The notes below the pieces were generated by a model, which was not told the origin of the DNA, did not search any database, and worked only from the letters and a program-made list of their open reading frames with translations. Shown one piece after another: positions 1 to 47,268 of a stretch of DNA of 64,000 nucleotides; within the stretch, counting starts at the first letter, position 1; each line of letters begins with the position of its first letter. The stretch is taken from NCBI GenBank assembly GCA_964402215.1, contig CAYOAT010000003.1, positions 29,167 to 93,166 on the forward strand. The letters run 5' to 3'. The position numbers and the translations under genes are program-made. The stretch is from an uncultured Candidatus Saccharibacteria bacterium. GTDB taxonomy: Bacteria > Patescibacteriota > Minisyncoccia > Phycocordibacterales > JAACPR01.

Positions 1-289
1 CGATGATGATTGTGTCGCGGTGGATACTGGTGATCATTGGGGTGATTTGGCTTCAGAACTTTCTAAATATATACCAAAATTACCTGTAGACCCGATGGGT
101 GGACAGGGGAAGGACGAGAACGGAGATGATGCAGGATATTATTCATATTATTATGCAACACCGGGGCACATAAAGGTCCATATAGGTGAATATGATCAGC
201 CATTTGATAATAGTTCTTATCTTATTGCTGCACAGTTATTGGAATCTACAGAAGGAGAGTCGTTTTCAAAGGGTTTCGGTTCGTTCTAA
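1..289 (+). CDS. Partial CDS (5' end outside window): C-terminal domain of a type IV pilin-like paralog
   Basis: Translation (ORF 20..289, open to window start) aligns with the C-terminus of the 1045..1956 pilin: shared W.DLA.EL..YI..LPVDP...YYYA.PG...QLE..GE.FS.GFGS pattern ending GFGSF/GFGSW. Confidence 0.5.
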   Translation, partial: DDDCVAVDTGDHWGDLASELSKYIPKLPVDPMGGQGKDENGDDAGYYSYYYATPGHIKVHIGEYDQPFDNSSYLIAAQLLESTEGESFSKGFGSF

Positions 290-302
290 CTCAATCTTCG
301 TA

Positions 303-345
303 ATTTAAAAACACCCCGTTCTCCTAAGCGGGGTGTTTTTTTGGA
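303..345 (+). terminator. Rho-independent terminator (GC hairpin aacaccccg...cggggtgttttttt)
   Basis: Inverted repeat CACCCCG/CGGGGTG followed by a T-run directly after the stop of the partial pilin gene. Confidence 0.6.
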
Positions 346-424
346 TGTGATATTCAATTAAAAATAAATACAAAAAAACCCGCGCAGTTTGCACTGTGCG
401 GGCCTAGATCGAAAATCGATCAGG

Positions 425-874
425 TTACTTCATGCTTGTTGTCACCAGATAACCACCGCCTAGGACCATCGAGATCCCAATTAGTAGCTTTGGCAACAAA
501 ACATGTTCGGCCTCATCAAACACTGTCAGGCCGATTATCGAAGAAATTACTGGGTAAGTTGCAAAAAGAACAATTACAATGCACATCTTTGATTCTGGAT
601 GTGCAAGTGAATGTGAACTTGCAATAAAACCAATGCCACAGATAATTGCTGCCACAGCTCCAATCAATGCAGATTGAACATTTGGAAAGCAATTATTTGC
701 GGCAATTGATTCCCTGGATATAATCGAGACCAATGCAATAGCTCCGAGGCAAAGTCCGTAGATAAGGTTGAAACCTTCTGCGGTCAGACCTTTACCAAGA
801 GCGAGTTTGGCGATTGGGCCAGATATACCAAAGCAAACTGAGGCGACAAGCGCCCAAAAAATATCAATTTTCAA
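425..874 (-). CDS. Small EamA/DMT-like membrane protein (4-5 TM)
   Basis: 149 aa, entirely hydrophobic helices with Gly/Ala-rich EamA-like pattern. A hairpin at ~370-405 followed by a T-run on the minus strand is its likely terminator. Confidence 0.45.
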   Translation of the reverse strand: MKIDIFWALVASVCFGISGPIAKLALGKGLTAEGFNLIYGLCLGAIALVSIISRESIAANNCFPNVQSALIGAVAAIICGIGFIASSHSLAHPESKMCIVIVLFATYPVISSIIGLTVFDEAEHVLLPKLLIGISMVLGGGYLVTTSMK

Positions 875-1044
875 CTTCTTTCTCCTTTGTTAAGTGAACG
901 GTTAAATCTTCTTCCCGCGCAAATTTATACTAAAAATGTTATGTTTTGTCAATTGCGGTTTTAAGTTCTGTTTAGCTTTTTGATTTCGTTTATATCCAAG
1001 CTATAATACATTATTGTTCGTTTAATAGTTTAAATAATTTCAAT

Positions 1045-1956
1045 ATGTCATTTAACATCTCTCGTCGTTCTAGCACACAGAAGGGTTTCACTCTCTTAGA
1101 AATGCTTTTGGTGATTGCAATCATTGCAATACTTGCGGCAATTGTCATCGTCGCAATTAATCCTGCTCGACAATTAGCTCAGGCACGTAATGCACAGAGA
1201 GCTAGTGATTTAAATGCTCTATACAAAGCCACACAGCAATATTTAATTGATAATAACGGTGTATGGCCCGAAGCAGCTAGTTTGGATGAGGATCTACAAG
1301 AAATTTGTGGTACTGGTGGTGGCACCAGCGGGTGTGTTGATTTGACGGCTGAACTTGTCCCAGACTATATAGCTGCTCTTCCACAAAATCCAGACGGTGG
1401 TAATTATCATATAGCGATTAGACAAAATAAACCCGCTCTTATGGCTCCTGGTAGTACAGAAAATGATCTTGTTGGTGTAGTCATTGGAAATGTTGAACAA
1501 AGTGAAGTTTCAGAAGGTGAGGAAGATCCAGAAGATTGTTCTGATTTAACTGGTGATGATAGACGAGTTTGTGATTTGGCAGCAATTCATGAAGCAATAG
1601 AAGATTATATTGCTGATAATGATCATGCGCCTTATTTGGGTGGTGGGTGTACCATGGAAAATGGTCAAGATGATCTTTGCATCGCTTACGATTTTTCTGG
1701 TTCTTGGGATATTCTTGCGGGTGAACTTGCTGATTATATTGATCCATTACCAGTCGACCCTTGCGGTGAGGATTGTTATTATGAGGCAGACGGCACAAAG
1801 TTCTTTTTTTCATATGGATATGCTGCACCAGGAGAATTAGTTGATTTTTGTGCGGACCGCGAATGTGTAGGTGATAATACTGCGTATGGTTTACATGCCG
1901 AACAGTTAGAGGATGAGGTTGGCGGTCGAATTAGTTACGGTTTTGGTTCTTGGTAA
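1045..1956 (+). CDS. Type IV pilin-like protein (prepilin N-terminal cleavage/methylation domain) with Cys-containing C-terminal domain
   Basis: N-terminus ...KGFTLLEMLLVIAIIAILAAIVIVAINPARQLAQARNAQRASDLNAL: class III signal peptide with G|FTLLE cleavage motif. TATAAT-like -10 upstream (~995). Confidence 0.8.
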   Translation: MSFNISRRSSTQKGFTLLEMLLVIAIIAILAAIVIVAINPARQLAQARNAQRASDLNALYKATQQYLIDNNGVWPEAASLDEDLQEICGTGGGTSGCVDLTAELVPDYIAALPQNPDGGNYHIAIRQNKPALMAPGSTENDLVGVVIGNVEQSEVSEGEEDPEDCSDLTGDDRRVCDLAAIHEAIEDYIADNDHAPYLGGGCTMENGQDDLCIAYDFSGSWDILAGELADYIDPLPVDPCGEDCYYEADGTKFFFSYGYAAPGELVDFCADRECVGDNTAYGLHAEQLEDEVGGRISYGFGSW

Positions 1957-1984
1957 ATTCAGTATAAAAAGCTAACATATAGAA

Positions 1985-3340
1985 ATGTCATATATTATTT
2001 CAATTTCTCACGCGCTGCTAGATATTTTTGCAGGCGGCCGAAGTAATGTAAAAGTTTACCTATTCTTTGTATATTTTGCGGTTTTATTTTTGATTACTTT
2101 TCTTGTAAAAAGAAATCTTTCTGAAAAAACAAAAAAAATAAGCCAATATTTATTTTTATCAACGATAATCGCGGGACATATTCTTGGTTCAATTGTTTTT
2201 TTGAATTTCGCCCATCAGTATGGTTTTGAAAAGAATGATTTTGTTTTGACATTTAATAACGGGGAAGTTTCCAGTTCCCAATTGTCGCATAATCATGTTT
2301 TGAAAGGTTCTGTTGGATTGGGTCTAAATCATTTTGACAGTGGAAAATTTGAAAACATTGATGCCGGGCTTCCTTTCGTTGGAATTATTCCAGGTTACAT
2401 TTTGTGGGTTGGAATAATCTTGGTTTTACTAGCGGCATTTTCTTCTCTAGTATTTTTTGCAACTTTAATTTCGCAAAGAACTAATTTATCCAAAAAAGTT
2501 ATATTTTTGGTGGCATTTGCATTTGCAGCGTTTCCCTTGATAAAAGCGATTTCTGATGGGGGACTTTTCTTATCAAATACTTTGCCAATATTGGCAGCAC
2601 TCTTTTATGGAATATATAACAGTAAAAATGGAAAAAAACTTTGTGTGATTACGTCCGCACTTTATGTCGCATGGACAATTATCGCCTGGAAATATTTCTT
2701 CTTTGAAGAGGATTATCAATTAAAAGCCCATATTTTGGCCAGCATTATTCCTTTTACAATTTTAATGACCCTTTTTGTCGTAGAAAAACACGCGACGAGA
2801 AGAGTCTCATATCTATTAGGAATAGTTCTTGTTCTTTCAATTATTTATTACCCGATGTACACCGAATTAAGTACGATTTCAAAATATCGAGAACACAAAG
2901 CCGTGGGCGGGATTGTTGCGCTTTATTCTACGCCAACAGATTTTCCTGGAACATTTAAATCAAGTCTAGGTGGCTTAAATTTTTATGAAATCAATGAAAA
3001 TATTTTGGTTGATGACGTTATTAATAAATATTATTTGTTAGACAATATTTATCCTGTTGCTGTACCGTGGAAAACATGTATTCCAACAACGTTTGGTGAT
3101 GAATATACTTTTTCTGTTAATGTGAAAAGTGATCAGGTTATTGATTTAGAAAATAAAATTAAATTATCACAATTTAATAAAACCGAAGTTAAGTTTGTTG
3201 AGGAAAAGGATGGAATATCAAAATATGATGCGGCAGTCACAATAAAACCTTGTTTGCCAAGGCACTTGAACGTTATGCAAGAATATTTAAAGAGTAAATT
3301 TGTCGAACCATTCTTTGTATATAATATTAATAAAATATAA
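1985..3340 (+). CDS. Polytopic membrane protein with C-terminal soluble domain, function unknown
   Basis: 451 aa, ~9-10 predicted hydrophobic helices in the first 300 aa, directly downstream of the pilin gene. No recognisable catalytic motif. Confidence 0.4.
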   Translation: MSYIISISHALLDIFAGGRSNVKVYLFFVYFAVLFLITFLVKRNLSEKTKKISQYLFLSTIIAGHILGSIVFLNFAHQYGFEKNDFVLTFNNGEVSSSQLSHNHVLKGSVGLGLNHFDSGKFENIDAGLPFVGIIPGYILWVGIILVLLAAFSSLVFFATLISQRTNLSKKVIFLVAFAFAAFPLIKAISDGGLFLSNTLPILAALFYGIYNSKNGKKLCVITSALYVAWTIIAWKYFFFEEDYQLKAHILASIIPFTILMTLFVVEKHATRRVSYLLGIVLVLSIIYYPMYTELSTISKYREHKAVGGIVALYSTPTDFPGTFKSSLGGLNFYEINENILVDDVINKYYLLDNIYPVAVPWKTCIPTTFGDEYTFSVNVKSDQVIDLENKIKLSQFNKTEVKFVEEKDGISKYDAAVTIKPCLPRHLNVMQEYLKSKFVEPFFVYNINKI

Positions 3341-3849
3341 TGAAAGAAATTTTTATTAATGTTTTTATCTTTTTAATTCCCCCGATGATTGTTAACGGAT
3401 CGTTTAATTTCTTATCACCATTACGTAGAAAAAATTCTTTTTTTGCAAAATTAGATAGACCAATTGATTTTGGTAAATTGTTTTTTGATGGCCGCAGAAT
3501 ACTGGGGGATTCCACGACTTTTCCTGGAATTATTGTCGCAATAATAGTCGGACCTATCGTTGGTTTTATTGTTTATAATTCACTTTACATTGGTCTACTT
3601 ATTGGAATTTGTACTTATCTTGGCCACGCGGTTGGAAGTTTTTTGAAAAGAAGAGTGGGAATTTCAGATGGTAAATTTTTGCCAGTAATTGATCATAGTG
3701 ATTATATAATGTTCAATGGAATTGTTTGGTTAGTGCTCGGACTATTAAGTTTTAAAATATTCTTAATTTCTTGGTTAACTATTTTAATTATTCACCCAAT
3801 GTTTTGCTATTTAGGATATAAATTAGGAATTCGCACAACAATACTTTAA
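3340..3849 (+). CDS. carS: CDP-archaeol synthase-like CTP-transferase (CarS/DUF46 family) membrane protein
   Basis: 169 aa. Motifs LIPPMIVNGSFN, RPIDFGKLFFDGRRILGDSTTFPG, GSFLKRRVGISDGKFLPVIDHSDY and IIHPMFCYLGYKLG match archaeal CarS blocks (ANGSPV / PVDFxKxxxDGKRIFGxGKTWxG / GSFLKRRLGIxRG...DQxDF). 5 TM. Confidence 0.65.
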   Translation: MKEIFINVFIFLIPPMIVNGSFNFLSPLRRKNSFFAKLDRPIDFGKLFFDGRRILGDSTTFPGIIVAIIVGPIVGFIVYNSLYIGLLIGICTYLGHAVGSFLKRRVGISDGKFLPVIDHSDYIMFNGIVWLVLGLLSFKIFLISWLTILIIHPMFCYLGYKLGIRTTIL

Positions 3850-4436
3850 CTAACTTTCTTTTTTTTATAAAAAACTAAAATTGTTAACAACAACATAATT
3901 ATTATTCCCAAAGAAAATCCAATCAATCCGTATTTGCCTGTGAAAATATAAATGTAATGGGAGGCTTGCCAGCCGATTAGACCTAAAATAGTGATTCTAA
4001 TAATTGATCCAAGAAATGTAACAATTAAAAATGTTTTGAGTGAAAAATTCCACAAACCACCAATGACTGTCGCCACAAGACCTGAAAAATTTGGCAATAA
4101 TCGCATTAAAAAAAACATAGAAATAGAACCATCTTTGTGAGAAAGGGAGTTTTCTTTAATTTTATGAATTATTTTTTGTAATTTGGTTTGTTTTTCATCA
4201 ATCTTTGTAAATCCATATTTTGATAAGAGAAAGATCGGAATAGAGCCAATAGCGACGCCAAGAGCGGCGGGTAAAACTAAAAATAAAAAGAAATATCCAA
4301 AATTTAAAAAATTTAGCGGATTGCCAATCATAAATCCACCGATTGATACTTGGGCGACTGTCGAAGGAATAAAGAAAAGAATTTCTTCAAGAACTGAAAG
4401 TGACAATGATATATAAATAAAAAATAGTGCAGTCAT
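3846..4436 (-). CDS. DedA/VTT-like membrane protein (tentative)
   Basis: 196 aa multi-TM protein with a Gly-rich re-entrant-like segment (VATVIGGLWNFSLKTFLIVTFLGSIIRI). Family assignment tentative. Confidence 0.35.
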   Translation of the reverse strand: MTALFFIYISLSLSVLEEILFFIPSTVAQVSIGGFMIGNPLNFLNFGYFFLFLVLPAALGVAIGSIPIFLLSKYGFTKIDEKQTKLQKIIHKIKENSLSHKDGSISMFFLMRLLPNFSGLVATVIGGLWNFSLKTFLIVTFLGSIIRITILGLIGWQASHYIYIFTGKYGLIGFSLGIIIMLLLTILVFYKKKKVS

Positions 4437-4545
4437 TTAATTTGTTTATCAATTATAATTTGGTTTTAACAAGAATGCGAATATTATTCAATTTCTGAAG
4501 AATTTTAAAACCCGCTGCAGTTGCAACGGGTTTTGTTGAGGGATG

Positions 4546-4950
4546 TTAATCTCTCGCTTTGCGAACATCCTTTATCGTGATGAGTTTTTCGCCCCTTGGC
4601 AGAAGTGCCATGTTTCCATTTCCACCCAGGATTTCGAGCCCTCCATTTGGGAGGCGACGCCACCCATGTTTCAAAAGAACGACCAGGAAACCGTCGCTTC
4701 GATCATCAAGTTTCCAGTCGATTTTGTCAAACGGCTGGTGAGCTATCCAATCACATTCGATTTCGATTGAACCACTGATGAGAATGATTGAACGAATTCT
4801 CCCACCAACTAGTTTGTCACGAGTAACGTGATGTGATAAAACTGCTTGGCAACCGATGTAGCCATTCAGCATGGATTGACTCAGTGTATCCGCCCCGCGT
4901 TCGACAAGGGCGTCGAGCATGGCTTCGTACAAATATGTATGTCTTGGCAC
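4546..4950 (-). CDS. Hypothetical protein resembling the C-terminal half of an MJ0936/YfcE-type metallophosphoesterase (possibly an N-terminally truncated remnant)
   Basis: CQAVLSHHVTRDKLVGGRIRSIILISGSIE resembles the C-terminal GHTH...NPGS block of calcineurin-like phosphoesterases. N-terminal metal-binding motifs are absent. Region is visibly GC-richer than surroundings. Confidence 0.25.
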   Translation of the reverse strand: MPRHTYLYEAMLDALVERGADTLSQSMLNGYIGCQAVLSHHVTRDKLVGGRIRSIILISGSIEIECDWIAHQPFDKIDWKLDDRSDGFLVVLLKHGWRRLPNGGLEILGGNGNMALLPRGEKLITIKDVRKARD

Positions 4951-5098
4951 GTAACGTTCTCCTTTGCTTTCTGTTTATAGTTCCAATTCCGTATATGACA
5001 TTACCACTGGTTATTATATGTGTCAACTTCGCAGAAAGTTATAGAAAATAATCAAAATAAAAAGCCCCGCCGGTGTTTTTAGGGCGGGGGATAAGGGT

Positions 5099-5434
5099 TT
5101 AGGAACAAATTGAAATAATTATCTGACTTTCCGATTCGCTGCCATCAAGTGATTCGTGATAGATTTCTTTTTTTCTTTCTGTCGTTGTTGCGGCCTCAAG
5201 GTCACTTATAGATTGTCTCTCTATTGCTTTTTCAATCGCAATTGCTTCTTTGCTTCCGGGCCGTGCTTCTGCCAGTAAGTCATGTCTGTCACGCTGGGTT
5301 ATTGCTTCTCTTAGTCTTTCCATCAAATCGTCGTGCGCAGGTAGTTTGATACCAAACGCAACGGCAATTTTCCAAGCATCGATACCGTGCTTTCTGTGGA
5401 GCGCGATACAATCTTTATATGTTTTTGGTGCCAT
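5099..5434 (-). CDS. Hypothetical protein, possible small DNA-binding protein
   Basis: Likely start MAPKTYK (internal Met of ORF 5099..5500). Segment YKDCIALHRKHGIDAWKIAVAFGIK is HTH-like. Terminator hairpin at ~5060-5095. Divergently shares the 21-bp palindrome with 5492 gene. Confidence 0.3.
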   Translation of the reverse strand: MAPKTYKDCIALHRKHGIDAWKIAVAFGIKLPAHDDLMERLREAITQRDRHDLLAEARPGSKEAIAIEKAIERQSISDLEAATTTERKKEIYHESLDGSESESQIIISICS

Positions 5435-5460
5435 CTGTAATGTCCTTTCTGAGGAAAATA

Positions 5461-5481
5461 TTATCACAAATTTTGTGATAA
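5461..5481. promoter_or_regulatory. Perfect 21-bp palindrome TTATCACAAA-T-TTTGTGATAA in divergent promoter region (putative operator)
   Basis: Read directly: positions 5461-5481 are an exact inverted repeat, 27 bp upstream of the minus-strand ATG (5434) and 11 bp upstream of the plus-strand ATG (5492). Confidence 0.55.
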
Positions 5482-5491
5482 TATAGTAAAT

Positions 5492-5746
5492 ATGAGTCAT
5501 GAAACATTTAAAAAAATAGATCCACCAATTGAATCAGAATTGGCGCTCGACACAAGGCAAGCGCTTTTGGATTTAATAAAATTAAAAAATTACGGCGGTT
5601 TGGATACTGAAAAAATTAATATACAGTTATTATTTATAAAAGAGAGAATTAAAAATCTTTTTGAAAATAATGATCCGTATGCAGAAGAGCTAAGCGATAT
5701 GTTAAAAGGGAATTTTAGTGGTTTTGAACAAGGCTCTATTGAATAG
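5492..5746 (+). CDS. Hypothetical small protein (84 aa)
   Basis: ORF followed by GC hairpin terminator at ~5766-5800 (cacctcgcgctcgcgggtg + T-run). Confidence 0.3.
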   Translation: MSHETFKKIDPPIESELALDTRQALLDLIKLKNYGGLDTEKINIQLLFIKERIKNLFENNDPYAEELSDMLKGNFSGFEQGSIE

Positions 5747-5806
5747 TAGATTTTTTTGAATAAAAAGAAAACACCTCGCGCTCGCGGGTGTTCTTGTTTT
5801 TTTGTT

Positions 5807-6112
5807 TCATGTGAAGATCCTCCGAACAGCCCGCCAAAATGCGCGGAATATTCGTCGGACCAGGTTCAGCATTCCTCTTGCGAGAAACAGTGCAAACCTT
5901 TTGAGATGACAACTTGCCCATCTCAGGATCGCCTTTGTGGGTTTTGCGATGAATGTTTTGAACATCCATCGCAAGGGCTTGATCACAAGGTTCTGGCCAA
6001 TAACTCGCCAGTAACCCTTGAACAATTTAGGCCCGCCCAGAATCAGGGCAATACCTGATCCCGCGACGACCATGACCAGGATGTTTTGCAACATCATCAA
6101 CGTTTCGTTCAC
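5807..6112 (-). CDS. Hypothetical small membrane/basic protein
   Basis: 101 aa, N-terminal hydrophobic helix then Arg/Lys-rich tail. Competing + strand ORF 5756..6058 starts inside the terminator hairpin and is less likely. Confidence 0.2.
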   Translation of the reverse strand: MNETLMMLQNILVMVVAGSGIALILGGPKLFKGYWRVIGQNLVIKPLRWMFKTFIAKPTKAILRWASCHLKRFALFLARGMLNLVRRIFRAFWRAVRRIFT

Positions 6113-6194
6113 CTGAAATCCTTTCTTTAAGATTTGTGAATGTACTATTTATAAAATTATACCAGATTGTGATGGTATTGTCAAATGTAAATAT

Positions 6195-7127
6195 TTATTT
6201 CAAAAAGAAAGCTAATTTTGGAAGTAATGGGTCTATTTGAACTCCAACTCCTTCGTTTACTAAAAAATCTAAACCCGTCATATGATGTGCTAGATCCTCG
6301 TAGTTTGTTCCAAGTATTGTATTATATTCTTCGACAAGAATACCTTGGTTTGGGATACAAGATGTTTCGCTAATACCTTTTAGTTTTGCATAAGTAGCAG
6401 TGTGTTCCGCCTCACTTTCTTTTGGCTTAAAAATATTTTGCAAACCCTCGTCGTTTACAACAACATTTCGGTATTCTCTCTTTTCCCAATAGGCCGTATC
6501 GATAATTTGATCTCGTGTTGGAAACTCGGCACAATGCACAACAATACTTTTTACCATTTTAAGCATTTTTTCTGTACCATCAATACTGCTTTTAAGTTTA
6601 TCTGTTAGTGCAGCCTCATTTGGTAAGTTATTTGCCGCGGCTTCTTTTTTGTATTCAGAAGAATCAACAAAAAAATGTAAATGAGCGGTATCTGATTCTT
6701 TAAACTCGAAGCCTCTTTTTTGAGCTTCTAAAAGTGCAATTTTAAGTTTTTCGCCCAGCTGTTGAACAATAAGTTCTTGTGTTTGTGGATTAAAACTTTC
6801 GGCAAAATTGGCGTGGTAAACATCAGTCATCCTGGCTGAAGTTTTCTCTATACTGGAGGCGATTTTTTCATATTCAGCCTGAGTCAAGGAAATTCTACCG
6901 CCGGTTATTGGAAGGGTATGATTGATTACTCTTTCTACTGCTTCAATTTTTGATTCGGCTGAATCATTTGTTTCATGTTTATCGGCCAAAGTTGCAAAAG
7001 GAAGCATTCCAATAGCACCAAATGCTATGGCTTTTTTTAAAAACTCACGTCTCGAAAGATTACTATCCTCAGGATTATTTTTCTCAGGTGTTTCTATTTT
7101 TGGTTGTGGGGGACCTTCGAATTTCAT
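6195..7127 (-). CDS. Secreted hypothetical protein with twin-arginine (Tat)-type signal peptide
   Basis: N-terminus ...SRREFLKKAIAFGAIGMLPFATLA matches the S/T-RRxFLK Tat consensus plus hydrophobic h-region and AxA-like site. 310 aa, no recognised catalytic domain. Confidence 0.4.
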   Translation of the reverse strand: MKFEGPPQPKIETPEKNNPEDSNLSRREFLKKAIAFGAIGMLPFATLADKHETNDSAESKIEAVERVINHTLPITGGRISLTQAEYEKIASSIEKTSARMTDVYHANFAESFNPQTQELIVQQLGEKLKIALLEAQKRGFEFKESDTAHLHFFVDSSEYKKEAAANNLPNEAALTDKLKSSIDGTEKMLKMVKSIVVHCAEFPTRDQIIDTAYWEKREYRNVVVNDEGLQNIFKPKESEAEHTATYAKLKGISETSCIPNQGILVEEYNTILGTNYEDLAHHMTGLDFLVNEGVGVQIDPLLPKLAFFLK

Positions 7128-7234
7128 ATTTTTATTGTATTTACTTAATATAAGTATATCAAGTAAATACTAAACGATATTAAACAAAACAAAAGGACCA
7201 GATTTTGCAATCTGGTCCGTAGGTACATTTTCCG

Positions 7235-8017
7235 TTATTCTGAGCTGGTCGTTTCGTCGTTCGATAACGCGTCCAGTTCTCTTGCCAATTTGACTAGCTT
7301 GGCTTTTGCCTTCTCGCTAATCGGCATGGCGTCTTTCAAAATAGGAAGCATTTTTTCAGATGTAATATCTAAATCCATGCAGACTAACGCCATCCAGAAA
7401 CTGGCTGCCGTAGCGATTCTATCCGATTCGGATTCTTCATCATTTAGACTTGGCAACGTTGTCACTTGACCCGCATCGATAATATAGTTCATTATATTAT
7501 CGTAACGTTCACCGTCTGATTCTCCAGAGCACACGTCAATGACGAAATTTCCGTCAAGGTTAATTACTCTCCAGGTTTGTTTTATTGGCATAAATTCCTC
7601 TATGCCTAAAAACCTTGGTGACATATAAAATCCCGAACTCTGTGAGTCTTCCGGAGGAGGAAATTCCAAGTTCACCAAGAGAGCAGCCAACGTGGATTTC
7701 ACGTCAGTAACCTCCAATGAAATTGTGACATCCCAATCGTCGCCCGATTGTTCCTCGGCAAGAATGGAAAAATTTCTCCATTGAATCGGGGTTGTTTTCA
7801 TCGCTTCAATGAAAACGTCCTTATCCCTTGAATTGACTGTTTGCTCTTGCATTTGACTGTAGCGCTCAAACTTCCAATTCTTGAAAAAAGACTGAACAAC
7901 TTTGCCGGCCGGGCTTAAGGATTTCTCAGGCACAGCCTGTTTAAAACCACACCCAGACCAAGCAAACACCATTGCCAATATCATGGCAAAACAAACCATT
8001 TTCGTCTTCATCAGCAT
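7235..8017 (-). CDS. Putative lipoprotein, function unknown
   Basis: N-terminus MKTKMVCFAMILAMVFAWSGCG: signal peptide with lipobox-like ...WSG|C. Minus-strand terminator hairpin ggaccagatt..aatctggtcc at ~7195-7220. Confidence 0.4.
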   Translation of the reverse strand: MLMKTKMVCFAMILAMVFAWSGCGFKQAVPEKSLSPAGKVVQSFFKNWKFERYSQMQEQTVNSRDKDVFIEAMKTTPIQWRNFSILAEEQSGDDWDVTISLEVTDVKSTLAALLVNLEFPPPEDSQSSGFYMSPRFLGIEEFMPIKQTWRVINLDGNFVIDVCSGESDGERYDNIMNYIIDAGQVTTLPSLNDEESESDRIATAASFWMALVCMDLDITSEKMLPILKDAMPISEKAKAKLVKLARELDALSNDETTSSE

Positions 8018-8155
8018 CTCCCTTTGTTTTAATGTACTTTATTTAGTTTAGTATCTTCTTACCTAAAATTCTCAAAAAAATATACAAAATAATATTGTGC
8101 TTGTCAAATTATCAAAAAATAAAAAACCCCGCGCGAATGCGACGGGGCAAGTATT

Positions 8156-8485
8156 CTATTGTTGCATCACTTGTTCATTGATCGAATAGGTGATGACACC
8201 CGAATCAAAATTTGAAGGATTGTCAGTGCCGATTGCCGCTTTGACAATTGCGATTGCTTCAAATTGAATTGATTCGCCATTGTAGCACATTGGACCAACA
8301 GGTGGGGTTAACACACCTTTCACTTTGAATCCCTCAGTTCCATCTTTCCAGAAGCACACGTGGCTAATTGTTCTGCATTTGAAGACAACGTGTCCCGCAA
8401 AATGCATTTCCATTCTGTGCTCAACGGCCAACATAGCTGCTTCGATTTTATCAGTAAGAACTATTTTTTTCATTTTCAACCTCAC
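8156..8485 (-). CDS. Hypothetical protein
   Basis: 109 aa ORF (probable start MKKIV...). GC-rich terminator ccccgcgcgaatgcgacgggg at ~8128-8150 downstream on minus strand. Confidence 0.3.
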   Translation of the reverse strand: MRLKMKKIVLTDKIEAAMLAVEHRMEMHFAGHVVFKCRTISHVCFWKDGTEGFKVKGVLTPPVGPMCYNGESIQFEAIAIVKAAIGTDNPSNFDSGVITYSINEQVMQQ

Positions 8486-8640
8486 TTGCTGCGGTTTACT
8501 TATAGAAATATTCTATAAATAGTTAACATTGCGCTAACATTTATTACATTGCCAGACAATTTAAAAATGTCAAAGTACACAATTTATTTAAAATGAAAAC
8601 ACCCCGTCAGAAAACGTGCGATGTTTTCACGACGAGGTGT

Positions 8641-8916
8641 CTAAAATATCCAAGAGAATGGCGCTAGTGCCGCTTCGACGCACCACTGAAGGATACTTCT
8701 TACGACTATTTCTAGCCATAGAATAACCCAGAAGATTCCGCCGATGATGGCGAGAATAGCATAGGCCACGATGACCCACAGAACAGTTTCTGCCAAGAAT
8801 TCCAGTGCCCTTGCAGCGGCACTTTTCTCGGCATAGCGGTGGCTATTTTCGCTGGCCACGATGGCGGCGACAACAACAATCACCGCGAGGATCAGGAAAC
8901 CAATCAAGTCTTGCAT
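8641..8916 (-). CDS. Small membrane protein (2-3 TM)
   Basis: 91 aa, mostly hydrophobic. Confidence 0.3.
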   Translation of the reverse strand: MQDLIGFLILAVIVVVAAIVASENSHRYAEKSAAARALEFLAETVLWVIVAYAILAIIGGIFWVILWLEIVVRSILQWCVEAALAPFSWIF

Positions 8917-8928
8917 GTTTCTCCTTTT

Positions 8929-9159
8929 TTAACGGCAGGTGTTGATGTATATTGCAATCCGCCCAACTATTTCGGTTTCTGCCCCAACAGTTGCGTTAGG
9001 GAACGATTCGTTTATGGTGCGAATCACGAAATTTTGTTGAGATTCAGACAGTACGGCATCGGTGTTCACTGCTTGCCATATTTGTTCCGTGAAATCTCGA
9101 GCGTGTGATCCTGAAGCTCGACTGGTTATCAGTTTCGCCAAAAACTCCTTTGCGTTCAT
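8929..9159 (-). CDS. Hypothetical small protein
   Basis: 76 aa ORF tightly following upstream gene on minus strand. Confidence 0.25.
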   Translation of the reverse strand: MNAKEFLAKLITSRASGSHARDFTEQIWQAVNTDAVLSESQQNFVIRTINESFPNATVGAETEIVGRIAIYINTCR

Positions 9160-9298
9160 TTTTCTCCTTTTTTTGTTTCTTAAATGTACAAGTTTAGTAA
9201 GATTATACTATGTTTATTGTAAATGTCAAATATAAATTAAACGATTAAAAAACCACTCATCGAAATGAGTGGTATGTTGAGTCAGAAAGTATATTTTT

Positions 9299-9868
9299 CT
9301 ATAACTCGCATTTTTCCAAGTAAGCCAACAGCTCGTCAAGCTTTTCGGTGGAAATATAGTTTGGGTTGTCCAACCAAACTTTTTTTGCAAGCTTACCAAA
9401 ATATTGGTTATTGCTTGCTTTGGCAATCTGTATCGCTTCATCATGCGACATCCAGAGGAGCCGTAGGGCAGTTGCCAACATCACAGCTTCGTCGGCCAAT
9501 TCGGGTAATCCAGAAAATGACATAATGAGATTTTTTGCTGGACCAACGCGAATTGCTCCTCCGTAGCAATTCTTCTCCGGATTTCGGCTTTGCCAACTGC
9601 TGATGTGCTCACTGTTCTGAGCCAATCTCACAGCTTTTTCTTGCGAATAGGCGAAGTATTGCTCTCTTTTTTCCGGGGGGCAAACATCGACAGCAAAAAT
9701 TATGATGGGGATGCCTTTTATCGAGGCGGCATCATAAAGGGTGAAGTACCCACTGTCACGACGTGGTTTTTCCTTGCCGTTTTCTGCTTGGATAATTTCG
9801 GCCATGTCACCGACTGTCCACTGTAGAAATCCCAAGATGTCTACATGACTGCGTCCTAATATCATCAT
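9299..9868 (-). CDS. Hypothetical protein
   Basis: 189 aa ORF. Weak resemblance of GGAIRVGPAKNLIMSFSGLPELADEAVMLATA to GlcG/DUF336-like GG..I..G...G..GVSG...DE...A motif. Not enough to name. Confidence 0.3.
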   Translation of the reverse strand: MMILGRSHVDILGFLQWTVGDMAEIIQAENGKEKPRRDSGYFTLYDAASIKGIPIIIFAVDVCPPEKREQYFAYSQEKAVRLAQNSEHISSWQSRNPEKNCYGGAIRVGPAKNLIMSFSGLPELADEAVMLATALRLLWMSHDEAIQIAKASNNQYFGKLAKKVWLDNPNYISTEKLDELLAYLEKCEL

Positions 9869-9949
9869 GATCTTTCTCCTTCCATTTTTATTTTTACATT
9901 GTTCAAAATCTGTCCGTGATACTACAATGAAATATGTTTAAGTCAAATT

Positions 9950-10002
9950 TTACGGACATCGTACGAATCACGGGGAATTAGATTAAGAGCTGGGCAAGGG
10001 AA
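9950..10002 (+). repeat. R1: truncated copy of island repeat family (ggacatcgtacgaa...ggggaatta...)
   Basis: Shares the 5' core GGACATCGTACGAA and the gagggaatta segment with R4-R7, middle part missing. Sits immediately upstream of gene 10024. Confidence 0.45.
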
Positions 10003-13530: not shown

Positions 13531-13629
13531 TGAGGTACGAGGTGGCATTAGATAATTATTTATACAAAAGAAGAACCCCACCAAGTGCGGACCAGATAGG
13601 ATTCGACTTGATGGGGTTGGTTTACCTCA

Positions 13630-13998
13630 CTATTCACTTTTTTTTATTTTTACCGGTATGCATAACCCACTTTTTCTACCGGACTTGTATCTAACTTCAA
13701 TTTTATCGTTTGTGACGACGCTATCGAAAAGCTCCTTTTCGACACTGGATGAAATTTCTTCACCCTTTATATCGAAGCGAAGTTGATAGGACTCGGGCTT
13801 ATCCTTGCTGACCATTACTCTCCCGAATGGGACCATTGTGCTGGAAGCAGGGATTATCAGCTTTGTTTCGATTGTTGTAACCGTCGTCTTGATTGGTGCG
13901 ACACACACATCAATCAATATGATGGCCATAAACATTAAAAGTCCGACCATGGCGAGTACAATCAACAGCAAAATGAACGCACAGAATTCTTTGAACAC
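13630..13998 (-). CDS. Membrane-anchored hypothetical protein
   Basis: 122 aa. N-terminal TM MFKEFCAFILLLIVLAMVGLLMFMAIILI. Confidence 0.35.
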   Translation of the reverse strand: MFKEFCAFILLLIVLAMVGLLMFMAIILIDVCVAPIKTTVTTIETKLIIPASSTMVPFGRVMVSKDKPESYQLRFDIKGEEISSSVEKELFDSVVTNDKIEVRYKSGRKSGLCIPVKIKKSE

Positions 13999-14149
13999 AG
14001 TAAACTCCTTTTTAAATTAAATGTACTACTCAAATTCAAATAATATTATAACAAATATATATAAAATGTCAAATATATTTAAACAATTAAAAAGACCCCA
14101 CAGGCGTGAGGTCTCGAGATTCCATTTCAATCTCGAAAGTGTGGCGGTC

Positions 14150-14467
14150 CTATACCTTGACTAGAACCACCTGCAGGCCGTAATTGACCGCCGGTTCATG
14201 ACCAAAGTTTGTCGACCCATCATTCCGAACGTATGCAACGGTGAGGACTTTCCATCCATTCGTAACCATACGTTCAATGAGCTTGCTGGGGTTGATGTAT
14301 TTCGTGACAGAATCATCACCCTGGTGGTCAGGGTCGACAACGACCGAACCATCCATTTGAACCATGTGGCAGTTTCTGACGTCGGCGGCTTTTATGGCGG
14401 CCTTTTCAACTAGACCAACGACATGTCCCATTTCTTCGATTTCCAGGATTCCATTCTTTGCACTCAT
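14150..14467 (-). CDS. Hypothetical cytoplasmic protein
   Basis: Likely start MSAKNG (internal Met of ORF 14150..14515). Locally GC-richer than flanks. No secretion signal. Confidence 0.3.
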   Translation of the reverse strand: MSAKNGILEIEEMGHVVGLVEKAAIKAADVRNCHMVQMDGSVVVDPDHQGDDSVTKYINPSKLIERMVTNGWKVLTVAYVRNDGSTNFGHEPAVNYGLQVVLVKV

Positions 14468-14562
14468 CTTTTTTCCTTTCGGCCTATGACCGTGTGTATA
14501 TATGTAAACCCACAATGAGCCTACATAAGTATTATATCAGATATACAGAAAATGTCAAACTG

Positions 14563-28732: not shown

Positions 28733-29104
28733 ATGTTAGGACAATATAAAAAAATAATATTAGCCATAATCGTTGCAGTTATTGTTTTTGGTGCTTACTA
28801 TTTTCTTAACAAAGATGGCACAGATGCAAAAACAAGCACTGGCGTTGTAAAATCAGCTCCAATGGGTAAACAGACTAGTGAATCGGTTTTGGGAAATGAA
28901 ATTTTAAGTGTTCTTGGACGCGTTGAGAGAATTACACTTGATCGCGGAGTTTTTGATGATCAGGTTTATAAATATTTATCATCCGAGTACGCAAAAAAGA
29001 AACCAAAGGAAATCATTGAACAAGTTCCCGGTCGTGAAAATATATTTTCTCCTTACGTAAAAGATTCTTCCCTTAGTTCCGGAACAGTTTTAGATAATAA
29101 TTAA
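28733..29104 (+). CDS. Membrane-anchored hypothetical (PilP-like position)
   Basis: 123 aa, N-terminal TM. Between pilO and pilB. Confidence 0.3.
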   Translation: MLGQYKKIILAIIVAVIVFGAYYFLNKDGTDAKTSTGVVKSAPMGKQTSESVLGNEILSVLGRVERITLDRGVFDDQVYKYLSSEYAKKKPKEIIEQVPGRENIFSPYVKDSSLSSGTVLDNN

Positions 29105-29112
29105 AAATTAAT

Positions 29113-30828: not shown

Positions 30829-30846
30829 TCTGATATAATTTTAAAT

Positions 30847-31233
30847 ATGGAAGAATCAAAAAAGATAAAAATAATGATAGTAGACGATGACAAATTTTTA
30901 CTTGATATGTATTCAAGAAAATTTTCTCAGAGTAATTATGAAGTAAATGTCTGTATTGGTTCAGACGATTGCTTGGAAAAACTTAAATCTGGTTTCGTTC
31001 CAGACATTTTAGTGCTTGATTTAATTATGCCAAAAATGGATGGAATATCTCTTTTCAAAGAAATTCAAAAGTTAAAACTTTCTCCAAAATCAAAAAATAT
31101 AATTTTGACTAACCAGGGACAGCAAAGTGATTTAGATAAAGTCAAAGATTTAGGAATCGATGGATATATTATAAAAGCACTGTATACACCGACAGAAGTT
31201 GTAGAAAAGATTAAAGAAATTTTTAATAAATAA
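30847..31233 (+). CDS. Stand-alone response-regulator receiver domain (CheY-like)
   Basis: KIMIVDDDKFLLDMY...DILVLDLIMPKMDGISLFKEI...KNIILTNQ: phospho-acceptor Asp and conserved Lys positions. Confidence 0.75.
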   Translation: MEESKKIKIMIVDDDKFLLDMYSRKFSQSNYEVNVCIGSDDCLEKLKSGFVPDILVLDLIMPKMDGISLFKEIQKLKLSPKSKNIILTNQGQQSDLDKVKDLGIDGYIIKALYTPTEVVEKIKEIFNK

Positions 31234-31239
31234 AATATT

Positions 31240-32304: not shown

Positions 32305-32308
32305 AATT

Positions 32309-33520
32309 ATGGCAACATATTATTACAAAGCATTAGATAAAGATGGAAATCAAAAAGACGGAACAGTTACAGCTGTAAACGTTGATGTGGCAATAAATTC
32401 ATTGCAACAGAGAGGATTTATTATTTCTGATATTAAATCAGACGAAGACCGGGCAGGTTTTCTTGGAAAAAATATTTCATTTTTTGAAAGAGTAAAACTA
32501 AGAGATTTGGTTATTATTTCAAGACAGATGGCGACTTTGTTTGAGGCCCAAATTTCTGCGCTTAGAATTTTTAGACTTTTGTCTGCTGAATGTGAAAATG
32601 CAAAATTAGGAAGAGCACTTGCAGGAGTGGGGGAAGACTTACAAGGAGGAAGTTCAATTTCTGCGGCCTTATCGAAATATCCAGATATTTTTTCTGGATT
32701 TTATATCAGCATGGTAAAGGCGGGTGAAGAGTCTGGTCGACTTGATCAAACTTTTTTGTTCCTTGCTGATTATTTGGATAGAACATATGAAATCACTTCA
32801 AAAGCTAAAAATGCTTTTATTTACCCAGCTTTCATTGTTTTCACTTTCTTTGCGGTTATGGGATTGATGTTAACAATGGTTATTCCAAAGATTAGTGCTA
32901 TTTTGATTGAATCAGGACAAGCAATTCCGGTGTATACAAAAATTATTATTGGTATTTCAAATTTTTTGGTTGATTACGGTATATTTTTCTTGATTGCACT
33001 TGTTATTGGTGGATACTTCTTGTATCGATTTGTTCAAACAGGACCAGGAAAAGAATCGTTGGATCAGTTCAAACTTTCTATACCAGTACTTGGAAACCTA
33101 TATTCAAAGTTATATTTGGCTAGAATTTCAGACAATTTGAATACAATGCTATCCAGCGGTATTCCAATGGTTAAATCACTAGAATTAACACAGGATGTCG
33201 TCGATAATGATTTGTATAAAAATGCTGTTGCACAGAGTGTGGAGGATGTGAAGGCGGGTTTGCCATTGTCTGGGGCTTTTGCAAAACATGAAATTTTTCC
33301 TGGCATCATTATTCAATTGATTAAAGTTGGTGAAGAAACTGGTAACCTCGGAGAAATTTTGGGTACGTTAGCAAAGTTTTATCAAAGAGAAGTTACAAAT
33401 GCCGTTGATACATTAGTTGGTTTGATTGAACCGATAATGATCGTGATGCTTGCCGTTGGAGTAGGATTCTTGTTGGCTTCGGTTTTGATCCCAATTTACA
33501 ATATCAGTTCTGCTTTCTAA
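32309..33520 (+). CDS. pilC: Type IV pilus platform protein PilC (GspF family)
   Basis: Two GspF repeats, 3 TM. 403 aa. Terminator hairpin gacaacgagaaatcgttgtc+T-run at ~33535-33570. Confidence 0.85.
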   Translation: MATYYYKALDKDGNQKDGTVTAVNVDVAINSLQQRGFIISDIKSDEDRAGFLGKNISFFERVKLRDLVIISRQMATLFEAQISALRIFRLLSAECENAKLGRALAGVGEDLQGGSSISAALSKYPDIFSGFYISMVKAGEESGRLDQTFLFLADYLDRTYEITSKAKNAFIYPAFIVFTFFAVMGLMLTMVIPKISAILIESGQAIPVYTKIIIGISNFLVDYGIFFLIALVIGGYFLYRFVQTGPGKESLDQFKLSIPVLGNLYSKLYLARISDNLNTMLSSGIPMVKSLELTQDVVDNDLYKNAVAQSVEDVKAGLPLSGAFAKHEIFPGIIIQLIKVGEETGNLGEILGTLAKFYQREVTNAVDTLVGLIEPIMIVMLAVGVGFLLASVLIPIYNISSAF

Positions 33521-44322: not shown

Positions 44323-44370
44323 TCTGGGTCGGAATAATTTCCAAGATGATGATATAATTAATGACGCTGT

Positions 44371-45756
44371 ATGGCGTCATTTTTTTTAACGGATAAAAAA
44401 TTGTGTTTAAGGGCAATTTTATTAATTGTTCTTGCAATTTTTATACTTAATTTTGGTCATTCTTTTGTTTCTGCAGCGACACTTAGTAAGAGCGATGAAC
44501 GCGAAAGAGCTAATTTACAGGAAGAATTGGATAAACTTGAAGAAGAAAGAAAGGAACTAGAAGCGACACTAAATAAACAAAAAGGAGAATCGGCATCTAT
44601 TCAAGGTGATATTGGTATTTTGGCGAATCAAATATACCAGGCTGAATTAAATATCAAGAAAAAAAATCTAGAAATAGAAAGGTTAAGTGGAGTAATTTCT
44701 TTAAAAAAAGAAACAATTGATGAGTTAAATGAACAAATGTCTGATAGCAAGATGATTTTGGCTGAATTGATTCGTAGAAAAAATGGCACAGATAATACTT
44801 CACTACCAGAGATTTTGTTGGTAAGTGACAATTTGTCAGATTTCTTTTCAGAAGTTGACTCTTATTCAAGTTTAAATAAACAATTACAAAATCTTTTTTA
44901 TAAAATTCAAGAAATTGCCGCCAAAACTCAAACTGAAAAAGAGCAATTGGCTTCTCAACAGGCAAAAGAGCTTGATGCAAAATATGTTATTCAATCTGAA
45001 AAACAAGTAATAAATTCAAAAAAATCTGAAAAAAATAATTTATTAGCAGTTAGTAAACAATCTGAGGCAACTTATCAGCAAGTTTTAACCGAGAAAGAAA
45101 TTGAAATTGCAAAAATTCGTTCGGCGCTAATAAAATTTGAAGGTTCCGGTGTTACAGGAAAATCTATTTCTTTCGGAGAGGCATATGATTTTGCAAAATC
45201 TGCATCTCAGAAAACGGCTGTACGAGCTGCATTTATTATGGCGATCATGCAACAAGAATCCGGTTTCGGTAGAAATGTTGGAGGTTGTTATGTTTTGAAT
45301 GGAGATACTGGTGATGGTATTTACATAAGTTCTGGTTCTCCATCAATTAGAAATATGGTACCGGGAAATTTTGATAACTTTGTTAATATTACAAAATCAC
45401 TGGGAATGGATTGGAAATCAACACCTATTTCTTGTACTGCTTATTACAATGGAAAACCATATGGATACGGTGGAGCAATGGGTTACACACAATTTATTCC
45501 AAATACCTGGATGTTAGTGGAGGCTCGTGTTAGAAGTTATTTGGGTATTAGTGTTGCAAATCCATGGGAAGCCAGAGATGCCGTTATGGCTACGGCTGTA
45601 TTTTTGCAGGATCTTGGTGCGGCTCAACAAACGTATTCTGCAGAGTATAACGCCGCATGTCGATATTATGGTTCATGTGCTATTCACGGATACGGTACTA
45701 GTGTTATGCAAAAAGCTATTAATATTCAAGTGATGATTAATAAGTTGGAAGATTAA
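44371..45756 (+). CDS. Secreted coiled-coil protein with C-terminal lysozyme-like (SLT/transglycosylase-like) domain
   Basis: N-terminal TM/signal. ~250 aa coiled coil. C-terminal AFIMAIMQQESGFGRNVGG...GAMGYTQFIP resembles SLT catalytic E-S and GLMQ motifs. Confidence 0.5.
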   Translation: MASFFLTDKKLCLRAILLIVLAIFILNFGHSFVSAATLSKSDERERANLQEELDKLEEERKELEATLNKQKGESASIQGDIGILANQIYQAELNIKKKNLEIERLSGVISLKKETIDELNEQMSDSKMILAELIRRKNGTDNTSLPEILLVSDNLSDFFSEVDSYSSLNKQLQNLFYKIQEIAAKTQTEKEQLASQQAKELDAKYVIQSEKQVINSKKSEKNNLLAVSKQSEATYQQVLTEKEIEIAKIRSALIKFEGSGVTGKSISFGEAYDFAKSASQKTAVRAAFIMAIMQQESGFGRNVGGCYVLNGDTGDGIYISSGSPSIRNMVPGNFDNFVNITKSLGMDWKSTPISCTAYYNGKPYGYGGAMGYTQFIPNTWMLVEARVRSYLGISVANPWEARDAVMATAVFLQDLGAAQQTYSAEYNAACRYYGSCAIHGYGTSVMQKAINIQVMINKLED

Positions 45757-45807
45757 TTTAATTTTATTGTTATAATATCTCTATTATTAAATTAAGTACT
45801 TTTATAT

Positions 45808-47268
45808 ATGTTATTTAAAAATTTAAATCATTCGAATAAGCAGAAGGGTTTCACTCTCCTTGAATTGCTTTTGGTGATTGCAATCATTGCAATACTTGCT
45901 GCAATTGTCATCGTCGCAATTAATCCTGCTCGACAATTAGCCCAAGCTAGAAATGCACAACGAGCCAGTGATTTAAATGCGCTTCATAAAGCTGTTCAAC
46001 AATACTATATTGATGAAGGAGAATGGCCAGCAGATGGTAATAATGAATTAGATGCTGTTCTAGAAGATATCTGTGGTACGGGCGTTAATACAAGCTGTAT
46101 AGATCTTGAGGCTGTTCTTGTCCCCACATATATTCCTGCTATGCCAGTGAATCCATCAGGCGGTGCTTATCAAATTGCTCTTAATGATAATGGAAAACTA
46201 GAATTAGCCGCTGAAGGTTCTGGTGAACAAGATTTAACTCCTGTTGTCATTGGAACTACTACTGCTGTTGTGACGGTTGGTGGTGGAGGTGATGATCCTG
46301 AGTGTTCTGACGGTGAAGATAACGATGGTGATGAAGCGATTGATTATGACGATGGAAATGGCGACCCAGATTGTACTTCTGATTCTGATGATAACGAGAC
46401 TGGCGCAGTTGTTGTTGCATGTGAAGCGACTGGTGGAACAATAGATACATCAAGCGTTCCGGGCTATAAAATACATATTTTCGATACAGTGGGTAGTGAT
46501 ACTTTCAATGTTAATTCGGAAAGTTGTGAAATTGATATTGTAGTCGTCGCAGGCGGTGGAGGTGGTGGTGGTTTTTATCACGCCGGCGGTGGAGGTGCCG
46601 GTGGAGTAGTTTATTCTCCAGGTGGTATTGTTGAAATCGGTAGTTATGCCATTACTGTTGGGTCTGGAGGTTCAGGTGGAGAAGGTGAAATTGATTCAGC
46701 AGGGGTCTCGGGAGGTGATTCTAGTTTTGATGATTATATTGCATATGGCGGTGGCGGAGGAGGAACATTTCATTCGTATTCACCTGCAAGTGATGGCGGT
46801 TCAGGTGGTGGTGCAGGATGGTTTTCGACTACCCTTGGAGGAAACGCAGATCCCTTGGATCAAGGTAATGATGGTGGTTCACATTTACCTGGACATCAAG
46901 ATGATTCGAGAGCTGCTTCTGGTGGTGGAGGAGCTGGAAGTGTCGGTGAAAGCGCACCAATATTTTCACCATATCTAAAATCAGGCGACGGTGGAGTTGG
47001 TGTTGATTTTTCAAGTATATTTGGCTACAGCATAGGTGATGATGGATGGTTTGCAGGTGGTGGCGGTGGAGGTGGACACATGGGTTATTCTCAGCCTACT
47101 CATGCTGGACATGGAGGTTTGGGTGGTGGTGGCGATGGTTCAGATAATAGTAGTCCTGCTAGTTCTGGAATTTCTGGAACCGGTGGTGGTGGAGGCGGAA
47201 CAGGTGTAGAGGGTAGTGACGGTGGTTCTGGTGGCTCTGGAATTGTTATTGTTAGATACGCAATATAA
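45808..47268 (+). CDS. Type IV pilin-like protein with acidic Asp-rich linker and glycine-rich C-terminal domain
   Basis: N-terminus KGFTLLELLLVIAIIAILAAIVIVAINPARQLAQARNAQRASDLNAL. DDPECSDGEDNDGDEAIDYDDGNGDPDC. Long GGGGGGG/GSGG tracts. Confidence 0.8.
   Translation: MLFKNLNHSNKQKGFTLLELLLVIAIIAILAAIVIVAINPARQLAQARNAQRASDLNALHKAVQQYYIDEGEWPADGNNELDAVLEDICGTGVNTSCIDLEAVLVPTYIPAMPVNPSGGAYQIALNDNGKLELAAEGSGEQDLTPVVIGTTTAVVTVGGGGDDPECSDGEDNDGDEAIDYDDGNGDPDCTSDSDDNETGAVVVACEATGGTIDTSSVPGYKIHIFDTVGSDTFNVNSESCEIDIVVVAGGGGGGGFYHAGGGGAGGVVYSPGGIVEIGSYAITVGSGGSGGEGEIDSAGVSGGDSSFDDYIAYGGGGGGTFHSYSPASDGGSGGGAGWFSTTLGGNADPLDQGNDGGSHLPGHQDDSRAASGGGGAGSVGESAPIFSPYLKSGDGGVGVDFSSIFGYSIGDDGWFAGGGGGGGHMGYSQPTHAGHGGLGGGGDGSDNSSPASSGISGTGGGGGGTGVEGSDGGSGGSGIVIVRYAI

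Follow-up and report, generated by a model that had tools for sequence, protein, structure and literature searches.

In a 64-kb stretch of DNA from an uncultured Candidatus Saccharibacteria bacterium (positions 29,167 to 93,166 of contig CAYOAT010000003.1, assembly GCA_964402215.1; hereafter the window), three genes, g1045, g14714 and g45808, probably encode modular type IV pilins, in which a conserved pilin module would carry different cargo on the pilus. The cargo differs in each: a second pilin head in g1045, a set of LVIVD repeats in g14714 and a glycine-rich domain in g45808. Patescibacteria appear to be host-attached, as are all their cultivated members, and among their attachment devices type IV pili have the best support. 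Several pilins that share a stalk and differ in their outward modules are concrete candidates for host recognition and give testable targets, although the link of these genes to host attachment and an episymbiotic life, also made in the original prediction from this DNA, is one that we infer from published work on Saccharibacteria.

The original prediction had placed near-identical prepilin N-termini in genes at 1045, 14714 and 45808, and both the coordinates and the translations proved right. A six-frame scan with strict and relaxed motifs found exactly these three prepilin N-termini in the window. All three match PF07963 N_methyl (33-36.6 bits, cut-off 21.2) and TIGR02532 (31.9-34.3 bits, cut-off 16.3) and have a predicted class III signal peptide, (K/Q)G followed by FTLLE, with Phe at +1 and Glu at +5. 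In a search of solved structures, F15 of g45808 was aligned with residue 1 of mature Neisseria PilE, Geobacter PilA, Myxococcus PilA and PulG, so that cleavage is expected after G14. Over mature residues 1-56 the paralogs differ from each other at 3-5 positions (91-95% identity). We call these three genes A-type, and the different alpha1 of P0241, another pilin of the same genome, B-type. As a background control, P0241 is identical to the A-type N-termini at 29/56 positions, and the motif-carrying homologs from other organisms (114 of the 120 best homologs) at a median of 41/56, with medians of 24/28 in the hydrophobic and 16/28 in the polar half. Thus, the identity between the paralogs exceeds generic pilin similarity.

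The shared part is longer than the module of about 60 amino acids (aa) first proposed. The three proteins are homologous as far as residue ~150, with a conserved Cys pair and the motif LVP.Y...P.NP.GG.Y.IA in the shared part, and judged from its sequence this stretch of about 150 aa is a complete small pilin domain. The best named relative of the A-type head is the pseudopilin GspG of the type II secretion system (T2SS; TIGR01710, E 1e-11 to 1e-12, at most 127 positions). A search with the 152-aa module gave 1553 homologous proteins. Stand-alone pilins with a length of 140-175 aa make up most of the best 120, and the few of these with a given source are named as Patescibacteria. Likewise, the homologs of the pilin genes that have a source name or record title come nearly all from Patescibacteria (candidate phyla radiation) assemblies. 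The A-type "stalk" therefore appears to be an ordinary Patescibacteria pilin. The Cys counts of the three proteins are even (10, 10 and 6) with paired positions, compatible with disulfides formed outside the cytoplasm. The G+C content of the three genes is 42-45% compared to 35% in the window, for which a Gly-, Asp- and Ala-rich composition may be the explanation.

Synonymous (dS) and nonsynonymous (dN) divergence was estimated from codon alignments of the three paralogs, for alpha1 and head separately. In alpha1, dS was 0.56-1.17 and dN 0.07-0.10, compared to 0.74-1.36 and 0.46-0.47 in the head. Synonymous sites are thus near saturation in the conserved helix, with dS about the same as in the head, whereas dN is 5-7 times lower, so that the paralogs must be old and alpha1 is under purifying selection. 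The closest relatives from other assemblies have an alpha1 identical at 50-55/56 positions. Short patches of exchange seem to be superimposed on this. Between g1045 (1087-1180, +) and g45808 (45850-45943), over mature codons 1-31 of alpha1N, codons for the same amino acid were 28 identical and 2 synonymous, compared to 37 and 29 over the remaining module (Fisher p 0.0003), with dS 0.095 over codons 1-28 against >0.7 elsewhere; a 140-nucleotide (nt) blastn match of 91% covers this tract. As g14714 carries many synonymous differences within the same region, constraint at the nucleotide level does not explain it, and it is a probable gene-conversion tract. A second patch, at codons 47-58 of g14714 and g45808, also looks like a short conversion (10 identical and no synonymous codons against 42 and 38 elsewhere, p 0.004, the tract having been picked post hoc).

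Of the predicted cargoes, the LVIVD repeats of g14714 were borne out by a profile scan (PF08309, E 1.9e-82, 270.8 bits, cut-off 20.2, in six Pfam stretches), and PF09826 Beta_propel also matches the protein. Six GLQII motifs follow each other at an exact spacing of 42 aa, and a degenerate seventh repeat at the C-terminus, read by eye, brings the number to seven. Cys264 and Cys533 sit in the first and the last propeller repeat which, together with the seven repeats, is compatible with a closed 7-bladed ring. At the DNA level the region is a 126-nt tandem array (15504-16212, 5.6 copies, 84% matches). An open reading frame (ORF) of 278 aa that runs antisense to it (15333-16169) seems to be a by-product of the repeat and not a gene. 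The search for full-length homologs of g14714 was uninformative on how frequent the fusion of pilin and LVIVD is, as its top 120 were dominated by long LVIVD-repeat proteins and contained no pilin fusions.

The glycine-rich domain of g45808, similarly anticipated, was identified as Gly_rich_2 (PF21722, 88.9 bits vs. cut-off 24.3), with aa 228-484 covering positions 3-225 of the 226 in the profile. It also matches phrog_2295, a family of large phage proteins (E 2.9e-46), and weakly a tail-fibre-related family; no solved structure for it was found in the structure search. In a scan of 1.84 billion cluster representatives an exact (100%) copy of g45808, P0246, was detected, and by our count about 35 representatives of 400-500 aa share its architecture: the pilin module, a short linker, a conserved C.ATGG...Y.IH.F...VEVLVVAGGGGG start and the glycine-rich domain. 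Judging from these proteins, the family is large. The glycine-rich domain is also present in giant surface proteins, the longest with 7,058 aa. A search of the literature for PF21722, Gly_rich_2 and IPR049304 gave no published description of the combination with a pilin, and the terms PF21722, IPR049304 and 'glycine' are absent from the supplementary tables of PMC8179133. The gene directly upstream of g45808, at 44371-45756 (+), encodes 461 aa in which an N-terminal membrane anchor and a coiled coil are combined with a lytic-transglycosylase domain of SLT type (PF13406, E 1.7e-7); this neighbour was not seen beside the two genes for pilin plus glycine-rich domain in the metagenome-assembled genome (MAG) RA.bin143.

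The C-terminal module of g1045 had been described as Cys-rich and different from the other two cargoes. The difference stands, and the module itself is better described as a second pilin head, of B-type. It is shared with the partial gene at the left edge of the window, as predicted: ORF 2-289 is 39% identical to the C-terminus of g1045 (E 2e-16), and a profile of the shared module retrieved five proteins, four of them with a prepilin N-terminus. One of the proteins in question is the 168-aa P0241, a PF07963 match, the C-terminal 95 aa of which are identical to the partial ORF. The full P0241 gene is held by an independent contig from ENA (L001), 99.98% identical to window 1-6449. Its alpha1 differs from the A-type (GFTLIELLVVVAIIAMLASIVVSS...). 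The partial gene is therefore a plain short pilin with another alpha1, and not a fourth carrier of the invariant N-terminus as had been assumed. Residues 171-303 of g1045 align with residues 42-168 of P0241 (42% identity, E 1e-25), which indicates that the C-terminal module consists of the B-type alpha1C and globular head and lacks only the hydrophobic alpha1N. At the other end, residues 3-120 align with P0241 residues 2-108 (E 3e-9). The relation of the A and B heads is visible only via the intermediate P0241 and a MAFFT alignment, in which the B heads align onto the A module; BLASTP of the A-type head directly against the C-terminal module of g1045 gave no match. With an alignment of seven sequences, the C-terminal module alone gave a usable AlphaFold model.

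Orthologs of the tandem pilin were found in three other assemblies (P0280 on L002 and L003, L007 in RA.bin143, and the truncated P0001), and the neighbourhood is syntenic in three other assemblies. Directly downstream of g1045 lies a 451-aa polytopic membrane protein, with no match in Pfam, NCBIfam or PDB, after which come a CarS-like protein (PF01864) and, in convergent orientation, a protein of the VTT/DedA family; that this block could be a lipid-carrier or pilin-modification module is speculation. In a related genome (L002 8072-9145), a tandem pair of short B-type pilins (168 and 173 aa) is found upstream of the tandem pilin. Over the N-terminal ~60 residues the two differ by a single Ser/Ala change, and their heads have diverged, so the pattern of a conserved alpha1 and a variable head is found also in the B-type family.

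The idea that domains have been shuffled onto a common stalk holds in its outline, with its details corrected as described above. In relatives the same pilin module is combined with other cargo, such as LamG-like domains (LVGYWP motifs), a DUF5122 propeller, a DUF1566 domain, a fibrinogen-like domain, a pilin head and others. P0248 and P0249, both of a close relative, share 154 of the 158 residues at their N-terminal ends and then diverge abruptly, with no relation left after residue ~164, which places a junction within the Gly/Asp linker. The linker after the pilin head is thus indicated as the site of cargo exchange. RA.bin143 has three A-type paralogs dispersed over a 555-kb contig, two of them pilins with the glycine-rich domain and one a tandem pilin. 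Among the complete A-type-like pilins from species-representative genomes (n=82), 74 are stand-alone and eight modular, and all five with at least 50/56 alpha1 identity are modular.

The linkers themselves contain recurring elements. Within the window the acidic DPEC.DGEDNDGD motif is found in the g14714 and g45808 pilins only, which agrees with the sharing by two of the three first described. The broader pattern (D/E)PEC.DG.DND.DG..D...D..C occurred ten times in nine distinct proteins, always between pilin head and cargo. Next to it in g14714 there is a mini-domain with four Cys (CG..DG....P..LC..G..S.V.G.GPW.W.C.G..GG....C), which recurs ahead of the glycine-rich domain in P0247 and ahead of the LamG-like domain in P0307. 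Neither the isolated acidic linkers (E <= 10) nor the 4-Cys mini-domain alone had a match in Pfam, and the 107-aa stretch of g14714 with both elements had no sequence match in PDB at E <= 10. The Cys-bracketed acidic motif recalls the Ca2+- or metal-binding motifs of thrombospondin type 3-like and MopE-like kind; no Pfam model matches it, and we take the resemblance as a lead only. It may have the Ca2+-binding or hinge role of the original prediction.

The window (G+C 35%, with small genes open under the standard bacterial code) contains housekeeping genes and a cluster of type IV pilus machinery at 26299-33520 (+). Matches by Pfam to PilM_2, PilO, T2SSE (twice) and T2SSF show that the assembly machinery cognate to a type IV pilin is present (Table 1). 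The divergent neighbour of pilM is a ComF-like phosphoribosyltransferase-domain protein (25642-26268, -), which hints at DNA uptake as an additional role of the pilus machine.

Taken together, these features suggest how the three proteins could work. Prepilin peptidase would cut after the Gly of (K/Q)G-FTLLE, leaving an N-terminal Phe and Glu5, and the PilM/PilO/PilB/PilC machine of the same window would extract the proteins from the membrane. The alpha1 helix of about 55 residues and the small GspG-like head with one Cys pair are expected to insert into the helical core of the pilus, and the flexible Gly- and Asp-rich spacer with its small disulfide-bracketed mini-modules would tether the cargo, i.e. 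the 7-repeat LVIVD propeller (g14714), the glycine-rich domain (g45808) or the second pilin head (g1045), outside the filament. Since the cargo is bulky (~130-290 aa), the proteins are most likely subunits of low abundance, placed at the tip or sparsely along the shaft. In this way one filament type may gain several binding specificities for attachment to a host or surface, and it would be retracted by PilT, the presence of which suggests a retractile filament. The near-invariance of alpha1 would follow from the need of all paralogs to fit the same filament core and processing machinery, with the short gene-conversion tracts probably adding to its conservation.

Some observations do not favour this interpretation. 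A gene for the prepilin peptidase (PilD, peptidase A24) was not found among the scanned ORFs of the 64-kb window. A stand-alone A-type pilin was not seen in the window either, and the alpha1 of P0241 is just 52% identical to that of the A-type. The fold of the A-type head is read from a similarity to GspG that stays below threshold (42.5, 48.1 and 42.9 bits vs. cut-off 88.85), the single-sequence AlphaFold2 model of full g1045 was poor (predicted local distance difference test score 41), and we know of no ligand for LVIVD or Gly_rich_2.

The cargo could also be displayed on the surface of a monoderm cell without a long pilus, if the class III signal peptide and alpha1 served as a membrane anchor or a short pseudopilus-like stub. 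Comparable systems would be the T2SS pseudopilins and the 'bindosome' of archaea, in which binding proteins have class III signal peptides. The A-type head is indeed most similar to GspG, the cargo is large for a filament subunit, and a stand-alone A-type major pilin was seen neither in the window nor in the closest relatives. However, the GspG scores fall far under the equivalog cut-off of that family, and the PilT and PilM/PilO set in the window is typical of type IV pili and fits such a pilus better than a T2SS. In addition, alpha1 is conserved as a whole, including the polar alpha1C, which fits packing in a filament better than anchoring, and comparable pilins have been placed in pili by published precedents (PMC8179133, PMC11623550), so that we regard a mere stub as unlikely.

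It is very improbable that the near-identity of the N-termini is a functionless footprint of recent duplication or ongoing conversion in paralogs that may be decaying. The two tracts nearly without synonymous change (p 0.0003, and p 0.004 for the post hoc one) are what such a history would leave, but outside them the dS of alpha1 is as high as that of the head with a dN 5-7 times lower, and alpha1 is kept at 50-55/56 in other genomes. The ORFs are also intact, their Cys counts are even and orthologs with the same architecture exist elsewhere. Still harder to credit is an artefact of assembly or gene calling by which pilin N-termini were misjoined to unrelated downstream ORFs, even if the contig appears to be metagenome-assembled, g14714 had no exact match in the protein collection and the 126-nt tandem repeat in its LVIVD part is prone to mis-assembly. 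Against this, g1045 is reproduced at 99.98% DNA identity on the independent ENA contig and g45808 has its exact match in P0246, and the same fusions occur in other genomes, with reading frames unbroken through the linkers.

Beyond the interpretation of the three genes as modular pilins, we tentatively consider a broader idea, which at present is rather doubtful: the A-type pilin of this sub-lineage could be a dedicated carrier scaffold in a combinatorial display system, with a conserved alpha1 and head, reusable disulfide-bracketed spacers and interchangeable cargo, where recombination in the linker would swap the cargo and set the host range. Its spacers would be the acidic C.DG.DND.DG motif and the mini-domain with four Cys (GPWxWxC), its cargo the LVIVD propeller, the glycine-rich domain, the LamG-like domain or a B-type pilin head, and the tandem pilin, with a B-type head on an A-type stalk in conserved synteny, might link two pilin types as an adaptor. 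That a stand-alone A-type pilin was seen in none of the closest relatives would agree with specialisation as a carrier.

The modular-pilin design has already been described and is common in Patescibacteria, and the three genes extend this published concept without changing the current picture. Raynaud et al. (2021; PMC8179133), who introduced the definition of modular pilins, listed more than 1,200 proteins in 264 architectures, many of them from candidate phyla, with PilB (vWA module) and PilC (lectin module) of S. sanguinis as examples. As in those proteins, a small pilin module headed by a class III signal motif comes first, and a short linker leads to a bulky module that is not pilus-specific. 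Under the strict definition, in which the extra domain is not specific to pili, g14714 (PF08309) and g45808 (PF21722) are modular pilins, and g1045 falls outside the wording as its extra domain is itself a pilin head. Dataset S1 of the same study contains IPR012902-IPR013211 in several copy numbers, and its text cites an 860-aa protein of Ca. Falkowbacteria with 12 copies; as IPR013211 is the LVIVD repeat (PMC10210494), the combination of pilin and LVIVD is already on record. In contrast to PilB and PilC of S. sanguinis, to which the cargo described here has no sequence relationship, and to the other examples of that study, we have three paralogs of one genome with a near-invariant alpha1 and reused spacer modules, known from their genes alone.

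Within Saccharibacteria, Grossman et al. (2024; PMC11623550) showed that Nanosynbacter lyticus TM7x needs PilX2, which ends in a 7-bladed RCC1 propeller, to bind its host efficiently, and proposed PilX2 as the pilus adhesin; PilX1, with a beta-jelly-roll, and PilX2 are minor pilins of this group. Like these, the three genes encode pilins of Patescibacteria that carry a propeller or another accessory domain at the C-terminus. However, the propeller of g14714 is LVIVD and not RCC1, and PilX1 and PilX2 were reported to lack the canonical PilD signal peptide that all three genes have. For g1045 the closest analogue is PilJ of C. difficile (PDB 4IXJ), a dual-pilin fold in which domain one enters the fibre and domain two projects outward (PMC9556784). 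Both have two pilin-like domains in one chain with the hydrophobic alpha1N on the first only, although no sequence homology connects them; the tandem pilin neatly illustrates the reuse of a pilin head as cargo. A beta-propeller on the pilus for adhesion is known also from the tip adhesins PilY1/PilC of diderm type IVa pili, the modular logic of which was pointed out by Raynaud et al. (PMC8179133). The likeness is one of analogy only, since PilY1, rather than being a pilin itself, docks onto minor ones, and no PilY1/Neisseria_PilC domain was found by Pfam in the three pilins at E <= 0.1.

Table 1. Coordinates of the pilin genes, their predicted parts and the type IV pilus machinery in the window (contigs of other assemblies are named where used).
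Feature	Residues (aa)	Position (nt)	Strand	Matches and remarks
3' end of stand-alone 168-aa B-type prepilin (P0241)		1-289	+	N-terminus 257 nt upstream of window
g1045, 303-aa tandem (dual-head) pilin		1045-1956	+	PF07963, TIGR02532
g1045 leader	1-14	1045-1086		
g1045 alpha1	15-69	1087-1251		
g1045 A-type pilin head	to ~149	to 1491		
g1045 acidic linker	150-171	1492-1557		
g1045 B-type pilin head	172-303	1558-1953		without hydrophobic alpha1N
Conserved block downstream of tandem pilin		1985-4436; L002 10998-13476; L003 1787-4265; L007 4912-7403		
g14714, 542-aa modular pilin		14714-16342	+	PF07963, TIGR02532, PF08309
g14714 leader	1-7			
g14714 alpha1	8-62	14735-14899		
g14714 pilin head	to ~145	to 15148		
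g14714 acidic Cys-bracketed motif	157-180	15182-15253		
g14714 4-Cys mini-domain	198-247	15305-15454		
g14714 seven LVIVD repeats	~251-542	15464-16339		
PilM		26299-27405	+	Pfam PilM_2 1e-38
PilN-like		27476-28162	+	assigned by position only
PilO		28168-28722	+	Pfam PilO 2e-5
Small membrane protein		28733-29104	+	
PilB, extension ATPase		29113-30828	+	Pfam T2SSE 1e-116 plus MshEN
Stand-alone response-regulator receiver-domain protein		30847-31233	+	Pfam Response_reg; gene between PilB and PilT ATPase genes
PilT, retraction ATPase		31240-32304	+	Pfam T2SSE 1e-42
PilC, platform protein		32309-33520	+	Pfam T2SSF 3e-58
g45808, 486-aa modular pilin		45808-47268	+	PF07963, TIGR02532, PF21722
g45808 leader	1-14			
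g45808 alpha1	15-69	45850-46014		
g45808 pilin head	to ~152	to 46263		
g45808 acidic Cys-bracketed motif	163-189	46294-46374		
g45808 glycine-rich domain	~204-486	46417-47265		

Elsewhere in the window, runs of mostly minus-strand ORFs at 4500-10000 and 13600-14520 have a G+C of 0.38-0.41 compared to the window mean of 0.35. Three of these ORFs were scanned and none had a Pfam match, and the ENA contig L001 ends at 6449, within the first run. These runs may be strain-variable or foreign insertions. A very acidic protein of 444 aa at 59086-60420 (-), which has CARDB domains (E 3e-16) as well as an N-terminal membrane anchor, is likely to be another cell-surface protein.

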